A DNA stretch of 26,660 nt, from UHGV virus genome UHGV-0256785, one strand, 5' to 3'. Source of the DNA: a virus. Positions 16,418 to 17,145 of this stretch are shown here, piece after piece (position 1 is the first letter of the stretch; the number at the start of each line of letters is the position of its first letter). The position numbers were made by a program, and so were the translations under genes. The notes beneath the pieces are model-generated. The model did no database searches. It was not told the DNA's origin and saw only the letters and a program-made list of their open reading frames with translations.

Positions 16418-16807
16418 ATGATGCTTCTGAAACAGGGCACGTTTAATTATGAAAAACAGTCCGTGGTGCTCAGTGAGCTGTCCGGGCTGCAGAGAATTGA
16501 ATATCTGGCGTTTGTTCAGCAGCGAACGGCAAAGTTTGATGCACAGGAGGGAGAACTGCCGGAGGCTGAACGACAGATTGCTTTTCTGCGGATGGGGATG
16601 GATATCAATGCCTGGCTGGTTTCCCGCTCACTGTGGAATGCGGATCAGTCTCAGGATGTGGAGGCACTTTGCGCATCCGTTATTACAACATGGTCGTATG
16701 ATGCCCTCGGTGCGGGGGCGGAGATGGTTCTGTCGCTGAGCAGTATGGGGGCCATTGAGAATGCCGGGGATGATGATCATGAGGCGCTGACGCCGGAAAA
16801 GTCCTGA
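16418..16807 (+). CDS. G: tail assembly chaperone G
   Basis: ~129 aa; VVLSELSGLQRIEYLAF resembles the lambda G N-terminus; the track start 16379 (TTG) lies inside the terminator hairpin, so ATG 16418 or 16421 is preferred. Confidence 0.8.
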   Translation: MMLLKQGTFNYEKQSVVLSELSGLQRIEYLAFVQQRTAKFDAQEGELPEAERQIAFLRMGMDINAWLVSRSLWNADQSQDVEALCASVITTWSYDALGAGAEMVLSLSSMGAIENAGDDDHEALTPEKS

Positions 16808-17145
16808 CGCGGGAAATGCAGTTTGTCATGCGGCTTGCCCGGGAGTTCCGGCGGGCAGACTGGCGGCGGATGCTGTCGGAAATGTCGGCCACTGAGCTTG
16901 GTGAGTGGGGCGATTATTTCCGGATGCAGAGCTTCAGTGATGTGTGGATGGATGCGCAGTTTGCCTCGCTGAAGGCATTGATCGTGAGAATGGTGTCCGG
17001 CAGCAGTGATGCTGCGGTGGTTGATTTCAGCCTTTTACCGGAAGAGAACGGGATACCGGAGCGAACGGACGAAGAACTGATGCATCTTGGGGAAGGTATT
17101 TCCGGAGGTGTGCGTTATGGACCAGATAGCCAACCTGGTCATTGA
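16418..17145 (+). CDS. G-T fusion chaperone made by a programmed -1 ribosomal frameshift near the end of G
   Basis: The T frame is -1 relative to G and open only from 16783; A-rich GGAAAAG at 16795-16801 sits in the 25 nt overlap; T-frame ATG at 16816 has no RBS of its own. Confidence 0.6.

Follow-up and report, generated by a model that had tools for sequence, protein, structure and literature searches.

Tail genes and overlapping reading frames

The DNA considered here is the virus genome UHGV-0256785, a stretch of 26,660 nucleotides (nt) that is referred to as a whole as the window, and the element in question is a candidate programmed -1 ribosomal frameshift site at the junction of two tail genes, G and T. 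Tail assembly is encoded between 15.6 and 20.2 kb, in a block that belongs to a lambdoid prophage of the mEp460/cdtI type. This block shows the arrangement V-G-T-H, with the major tail and tape measure genes flanking two overlapping open reading frames (ORFs), of which the second is in the -1 frame (Table 1). The G-T segment is 97-98% identical to that of phages mEp460, cdtI, Tritos and others, and the G-T pair was found in 1846 of 5426 complete E. coli genomes.

The product of the first frame matches Pfam family PF06894 Phage_TAC_2 (E 9.9e-38, 16418-16804) and phrog_42 (E 1.3e-49), and in an E. coli locus of 98.4% identity the Prokaryotic Genome Annotation Pipeline (PGAP) gives it the name 'phage tail assembly chaperone G'. 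The second frame matches PF06223 Phage_tail_T (E 1.8e-14, 16783-17142) and phrog_39 (E 2.6e-42). Both frames also match, in N-to-C order, phrog_32165, a family of fused length (G at profile positions 1-119, T at positions 136-252). By sequence, the ORF pair is assigned to the homologues of lambda G and T.

Table 1 Features of the tail-assembly block around the G-T junction (positions in the window)
Feature	Position	Strand	Remarks
Major tail tube protein V homologue	15617-16360	+	Pfam Phage_TTP_12 (E 5e-67) plus Big_2 (match 15617-16357)
Gene G homologue, tail assembly chaperone	16418-16807	+	ATG 16418 or 16421 (PGAP takes the second); TGA 16805-16807
Shine-Dalgarno-like GAGG, candidate upstream stimulator	16781-16784	+	11 nt to the second base of the heptamer
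Open stretch in the -1 frame, T domain	16783-17145	+	after TGA 16780-16782; stop TGA 17143-17145
Predicted slip heptamer G_GAA_AAG	16795-16801	+	codon phase G, GAA, AAG, the phase of X_XXY_YYZ; read directly and by script
G-frame stop TGA	16805-16807	+	one codon 3' of the heptamer
ATG used as separate T start by GenBank and PGAP	16816-16818	+	ATG in 2/43 relatives
Tape measure gene H	17117-20191	+	overlaps the end of T; Pfam TMP_2, TMP_4 and Tape_meas_lam_C (17117-20188)

A single slippery candidate in the overlap

The opening of the T frame at 16783 and the end of G at 16805-16807, both given in the initial annotation, were recovered by direct reading and by recomputation with a script. The overlap of 25 nt stated there applies if the G stop is counted, while the sense codons alone overlap by 22 nt (16783-16804). 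The G frame ends with ...GAG GCG CTG ACG CCG GAA AAG TCC TGA, and GGAAAAG at 16795-16801 had been named as the only A-rich slippery candidate in the overlap. This holds, as none of the other overlap codons (GAG to CCG on the 5' side and TCC on the 3' side) re-pairs after a -1 shift, either singly or as a codon pair. Bases 4-6 of the heptamer are identical, as in the canonical X_XXY_YYZ rule (AAA at 16798-16800, then G, giving A_AAG), whereas the first three read GGA instead of GGG. Position 3 therefore sets the site apart from the strict rule, and the site belongs with the known NNA_AAG class.

GGAAAAG as such is common: the window has 11 copies where 4.15 would be expected, and six in-phase copies of G_GAA_AAG stand in long ORFs of the plus strand (at 16795 and at 751, 3952, 6618, 7867 and 24809). 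A -1 shift at any of the latter five would lead to a stop after 7-28 codons. The copy at 16795 alone is followed, after one further codon, by a stop and gives access to a long -1 ORF (114 codons). Because the heptamer is so common, the significance of the site at 16795 lies in its position and in its conservation among relatives rather than in its presence.

Conservation of the heptamer among relatives

Relatives were drawn from 80 loci in one-genome-per-species bacterial assemblies and from 80 viral contigs. The heptamer was taken by position alone, 13 codons upstream of a conserved T-frame motif, ARE..R.DW. In a first pass over 151 loci this gave GGAAAAG at 129, GGGAAAG at 19, GGCAAAA at two and GGGAAAA at one, many of the GGGAAAG loci being lambda itself. 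The motif was then relaxed, which added 15 loci, and contexts were collapsed at a divergence of at least 12%, leaving 43 non-redundant contexts.

GGAAAAG accounts for 33 of these 43 and occurs in many genera of Enterobacterales, so that the term 'non-canonical heptamer' used in the initial annotation is apt against the textbook rule and fails within the family, where this is the majority form. The lambda type GGGAAAG follows with four contexts. GGCAAAA (Kluyvera and Ewingella) and AGAAAAG (Morganella) have two each and are followed by TAG and TAA respectively, and one context each has GGGAAAA (Providencia rustigianii, then TAG) and GGTAAAG (Pantoea). In every context with A at position 7, and in those of the GAA form with A at position 1, the heptamer runs straight into a stop. 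N15, mEp213 and mEp237 carry GGAAAAG at the same place, and the same G-T position in Stx1a and Stx2a phages reads AAAAAAG.

Positions 1, 4 and 7 are synonymous in the G frame and yet nearly fixed. Position 1 holds 1.73 bits and is G in 41 of 43 contexts, although the codon that it ends varies (CCG, GCG, GTG, CTG, TTG, ACG). Position 4 holds 2.0 bits (A in 43 of 43, GAG never occurring), and position 7, with G in 40 of 43, holds 1.63 bits, its three cases of A directly preceding TAG. G-frame third positions in the 30 nt upstream reach 0.02-0.48 bits in the same contexts. Position 3 is the sole free one, with A in 35, G in five, C in two and T in one. The nucleotides of the heptamer are preserved even among relatives whose proteins are only 35-60% identical. 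These patterns point clearly to selection that acts on the heptamer as a nucleotide sequence.

The relatives also narrow the place at which a shift could occur. In those with GGAAAAG the opening of the T frame may lie just 6 nt 5' of the heptamer, and the G stop may adjoin its 3' end; a shift is therefore confined to 13 nt, the heptamer with the six preceding bases. A slip point nearer the 5' end of the overlap was considered and ruled out, both by this limit and by the inability of the codons there to re-pair. Over 44 contexts (the 43 and the window) the G stop takes just three distances past the heptamer, 0 codons in 10, 1 codon in 19 and 5 codons in 15.

An alignment of seven GT fusion proteins (the window, three Salmonella prophages, LLS, lambda and a Providencia phage) is gapless across the junction. 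The lysine of the slip site is invariant among the seven, and A-G-K-V-F of lambda aligns with P-E-K-V-L here. The gapless alignment and the invariant lysine therefore indicate that the site is positionally homologous to lambda G_GGA_AAG.

Some of the sampled loci carry labels at odds with their sequence. The lambda junction sequence was met in L063-L070 and L072-L076, mostly short contigs of low coverage in assemblies labelled Kitasatospora, Neobacillus, Oceanobacillus, Paenibacillus, Enterococcus, Leeuwenhoekiella, Shewanella, Pseudomonas, Chromatium and Tardiphaga, and is almost certainly contamination with lambda DNA. Metagenome-assembled genomes labelled Bacillota (L010) and Geobacteraceae (L057) likewise hold enterobacterial prophage sequence.

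Proposed mechanism of the shift

The programmed -1 frameshift that the initial annotation placed at the G-T junction as a candidate is supported by the comparison, namely by the Pfam homology, by the position equivalent to that in lambda and by the conserved heptamer. We infer with high confidence that the site directs a programmed -1 ribosomal frameshift producing GT in prophages of this type, probably by a tandem slip of tRNA-Glu and tRNA-Lys. Most ribosomes would translate G (128-129 amino acids) and end at the TGA at 16805. A minority would slip with tRNA-Glu on GAA (16796-16798) in the P site and tRNA-Lys on AAG (16799-16801) in the A site, moving back by one base to GGA (16795-16797) and AAA (16798-16800). 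Translation of the T frame would resume at GTC (16801-16803) and yield a GT protein of 241-242 amino acids with the predicted junction ...HEALTPEK/VLTREMQFVMRLAREF..., in which the part after the slash begins VLTREMQF. By analogy with lambda, the G part would bind the tape measure protein, the T part would recruit the major tail protein, and a large excess of G over GT would be required.

The two tRNAs differ in how well they would re-pair. The single tRNA-Lys of E. coli, with anticodon mnm5s2UUU, is expected to re-pair perfectly on 16798-16800, in line with the move from AAG to AAA proposed earlier. One tRNA-Lys reads both AAA and AAG in E. coli (Atkins 2016, PMC5009743), A_AAG is the most shift-prone tetramer in this organism (Sharma 2014, PMC4066793), and the move of tRNA-Lys from AAG to AAA is the best-documented -1 slip in it. 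Re-pairing in the P site had been called imperfect. This applies to the middle position, where tRNA-Glu on GGA would have G opposite U35 in place of an A:U pair, and can be refined in that the G:C pair of the first position would be kept, as would the pair of the third. PRFect counts the middle position of this move from GAA to GGA as a possible G:U pair and has a 'twofour' motif class (PMC10885494), into which GGAAAA fits. Peng et al. (2019), in contrast, treat the same move as a second-position mismatch (PMC6924986).

The latter view favours an alternative in which tRNA-Lys alone might slip on A_AAG at the same site, in the style of IS1222 G_CGA_AAG, with the re-pairing of tRNA-Glu being of no use. 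Hexamer and tetramer shifting of this kind is established (PMC5009743, PMC4066793), with NNA_AAG hexamers being used by IS1222 and the class also including B. subtilis cdd (Atkins 2016, PMC5009743). The variation at position 3 also speaks for such a slip, as do G_GCA_AAA, G_GTA_AAG and A_GAA_AAG at the same site; the A-run plus a purine is the sole invariant element of the heptamer. Against it stands the G at position 1, which is kept in the synonymous third base of a variable codon. Codon bias (CCG, GCG, CTG and GTG being common) cannot produce 95% G there, because neighbouring third positions are at most 56% G. Position 1 matches position 2 in all contexts except the Morganella clade, a relation that A_AAA_AAG of the Stx phages obeys too and that fits a selected pairing in the P site. 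The agreement of these two positions, seen in 41 of 43 contexts and likewise in A_AAA_AAG, argues that first-position re-pairing in the P site is under selection. A tandem slip with relaxed pairing in the P site is therefore preferred, and a slip of tRNA-Lys alone appears unlikely. Both models give an identical protein, and computation cannot separate them.

Slippage of the RNA polymerase on the run of four A residues, by which a minority of messages would gain one extra A and be read in the T frame, was also weighed. An A run is present, and some bacterial genes make products in two frames in this way (Atkins 2016, PMC5009743). However, the run has only four residues, an inserted A would give ...EKK..., and the conserved G at positions 1-2 and at position 7 would be left unexplained. 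Known bacterial transcriptional slippage requires about seven or more A or T. Polymerase slippage is hence a scarcely credible source of GT in comparison with the ribosomal shift preferred here.

Comparison with known frameshift sites

All features of a lambda-type G/GT cassette that can be examined by computation were found at the site, which is therefore placed in this cassette on sequence grounds. The -1 frameshift of lambda G/GT at G_GGA_AAG was reportedly described by Levin, Hendrix and Casjens in 1993 and by Xu, Hendrix and Duda in 2004. The window shares with lambda the order V-G-T-H, the Pfam families, a homologous slip codon, the predicted move of tRNA-Lys from AAG to AAA and K-V after the site. 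It differs in the third base of the heptamer, which is A here and G in lambda. Because of this base, the tRNA in the P site would be tRNA-Glu (GAA to GGA) rather than the tRNA-Gly of lambda (GGA to GGG, fully paired). In addition, the G stop lies one codon past the site here and five in lambda, and the GT proteins are only about 35% identical.

An identical GGAAAAG at the same position is found in N15 (genes 14/15), LLS (genes 11/12), phi80, mEp213 and mEp237. The GenBank record of N15 labels it 'slippery sequence for -1 translational frameshift', and that of LLS gives a 'minus-one programmed translational frameshift site GGAAAAG' with a joined coding sequence (CDS). Unlike in the window, the G stop of the N15/LLS group lies five codons downstream, and their GT proteins are about 35-37% identical to that of the window. 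An experimental measurement of the shift in these five phages was not found in the literature.

The closest diverged relatives are Gifsy-1, Gifsy-2 and Fels-1 of Salmonella LT2, with 67-70% nucleotide identity. They have in common with the window the block CCGGAAAAG(T/C)CCTGA, a stop one codon past the site and a Shine-Dalgarno (SD)-like sequence 10-13 nt upstream, whereas the flanks and the C-terminal tail of G cannot be aligned. The records of Gifsy-1 and Gifsy-2 describe T as part of a frameshift product, the heptamer itself being unmarked there.

Outside phage tail genes, A_AAG hexamer and tetramer -1 frameshifting in E. coli is said to have been described by Licznar in 2003. IS1222 (G_CGA_AAG) and B. 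subtilis cdd (A_CGA_AAG) resemble the window in the move of tRNA-Lys from AAG to AAA, in a 5' codon that re-pairs imperfectly and in an in-phase A_AAG. Unlike in IS1222, the 5' codon here is GAA instead of CGA and the preceding G would restore first-position pairing; IS1222 moreover uses a strong stimulator downstream of its site, for which no conserved counterpart is seen here. How efficiently sites of this class shift varies with the tRNA decoding the 5' codon (PMC5009743, PMC4066793). E. coli dnaX (A_AAA_AAG) has the same A-site codon and tRNA, and GAGG in the window lies at a distance comparable to that of the SD-like sequence about 10 nt upstream that stimulates dnaX (PMC6924986). The strong downstream stem-loop, the very high shift rate and a product that is the shorter one are, in contrast, particular to dnaX.

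Candidate stimulators and shift efficiency

SD-like sequences were sought in the interval of 6-17 nt upstream (Sharma et al. 2014, PMC4066793). GAGG in the window, at 11 nt, falls within this interval and satisfies the criteria of that study. An SD-like sequence lies 10-13 nt upstream in every examined member of the window's own clade (mEp460-type, Gifsy-1, Gifsy-2 and Fels-1), while phi80 and LLS, unlike the window, have none in the interval. Across the family an SD-like sequence is present in 18 of 43 contexts (42%), compared with 17% when control positions of these genes are taken. The difference is no more than suggestive, given the richness of the region in acidic codons and the relatedness of the loci by descent. 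As a stimulator for the whole family it was rejected, being enriched and yet not conserved, and it is left as a candidate at the level of the clade. A glutamate codon GA(G/A) at -14 to -12 (16781-16783), five codons before the Glu or Gly codon of the slip site, is kept in most relatives (G in 38, A in 36, and G in 24 or A in 13 of 43), the remainder of the G tail being variable. The SD-like GAGG arises where this codon is followed by one that begins with G.

Downstream of the site, the 99 nt of the window fold no better than shuffled sequences (z = -1.09). Folds in the 43 relatives have a mean z of -0.5 over 40 nt and -0.2 over 60 nt, and RNAalifold on 44 sequences gives -1.32 kcal/mol without a covarying pair. 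No conserved downstream structure was found at the useful spacing of 4-10 nt in the 43 relatives and the window. Segments of 90 nt are somewhat more stable than their shuffled versions in many relatives, with a mean z of -1.5 and 14 of 43 below -2. In the window this stability stems from a hairpin at about 16850-16890, in the stretch that codes for DWRRMLSEMS. The hairpin begins over 50 nt downstream of the slip site, lacks covariation and is probably a by-product of conserved, GC-rich coding sequence.

Several points weigh against the proposed shift at this heptamer. Since no downstream structure is conserved, the efficiency could fall well below that of lambda, which shifts at about 4% (PMC3296357). 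In a reconstituted E. coli system, AUG GAA AAG was translated mainly in the 0 frame and served as a 'less slippery' control for G GGA AAG (PMC6924986). Unstimulated A_AAG shifts in vivo at about 0.15% over a background of 0.11%, and with a strong pseudoknot at 5.6% (Sharma 2014, PMC4066793). The A_GAA_AAG of Morganella implies that the first G is not absolutely required, and the five further in-phase copies in long ORFs of the window imply that the heptamer itself is not strongly avoided. The GT:G ratio here may therefore be lower than that of lambda, or may be raised by the local context.

Perhaps, and we put this forward tentatively, the majority heptamer is deliberately weak, and the conserved G at position 1 would then show that first-position pairing in the P site suffices by itself in vivo. 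The G:GT ratio would then be set below that of lambda, because tRNA-Glu would meet G opposite U and because both tRNAs carry mnm5s2U34. Helpers within the clade, namely the SD-like GAGG 11 nt upstream and the stop 0-1 codons downstream, could tune the outcome. The 2-thiouridine at position 34 of the Lys, Glu and Gln set of tRNAs modulates the shift in lambda (PMC3296357), and as both slipping tRNAs here would belong to that set, GGAAAAG might be doubly sensitive to its state and hence more dependent than the lambda site on the Tus/MnmA 2-thiouridine status of the host. A measured shift of GGAAAAG in a phage setting was not found in the literature, Xu, Hendrix and Duda 2004 and work of 2013-14 lying outside the reach of the search.

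Expression and annotation of T

Every record examined of mEp460, cdtI, Tritos and E. coli in RefSeq (annotated by PGAP) presents T as a free-standing CDS of 109 amino acids (16816-17145), and none joins it to G. Read literally, this would mean that T is made independently from the in-frame ATG at 16816 and that the heptamer, frequent as it is in the window, is incidental. The relatives speak against this, as the T frame has no conserved initiation codon of its own among the 43. Apart from the two with ATG, the first base of the corresponding codon is C or G, usually in CTG or CGN. The ATG of the window also lacks a well-spaced SD sequence, GGGA lying just 2 nt upstream. VLTRE, which is encoded between the heptamer and the ATG, is conserved as protein, and the heptamer with its synonymous positions is conserved while its flanks are not. 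The T frame of lambda, moreover, is expressed solely as the GT fusion (PMC5009743). Independent synthesis of T is thus very improbable, and the ATG at 16816 is probably an internal methionine codon of GT.

The separate T looks like a systematic mis-annotation. Because T is annotated alone rather than as an extension of G, predicted proteomes lack the GT protein that would be the real product, and the chief value of the analysis is one of annotation, as GT is absent from RefSeq for a very common prophage module of E. coli. The kind of site is already known and ordinary, GGAAAAG having been annotated previously in N15 and LLS. Within the family, however, the textbook heptamer of lambda is a minority form, and G_GAA_AAG, the low-slippage control in vitro, is the form of most members. 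The family could serve as a natural test case for the pairing in the P site that a bacterial -1 shift needs, and for the lowest GT:G ratio that tail assembly tolerates.

Further observations at the locus

An antisense ORF at 16683-16892 has no match in PHROG, and a scan of 16300-17300 against Rfam gave matches at chance level only. Between V and G lies a strong terminator-like hairpin (GCCCCGG TTAT CCGGGGC, 16381-16398) with a T-run to 16404. The mEp460 record marks the same feature as a rho-independent terminator, and that of N15 has it as a putative terminator stem-loop separating genes 13 and 14. The hairpin could lower the expression of G, T and H relative to V.

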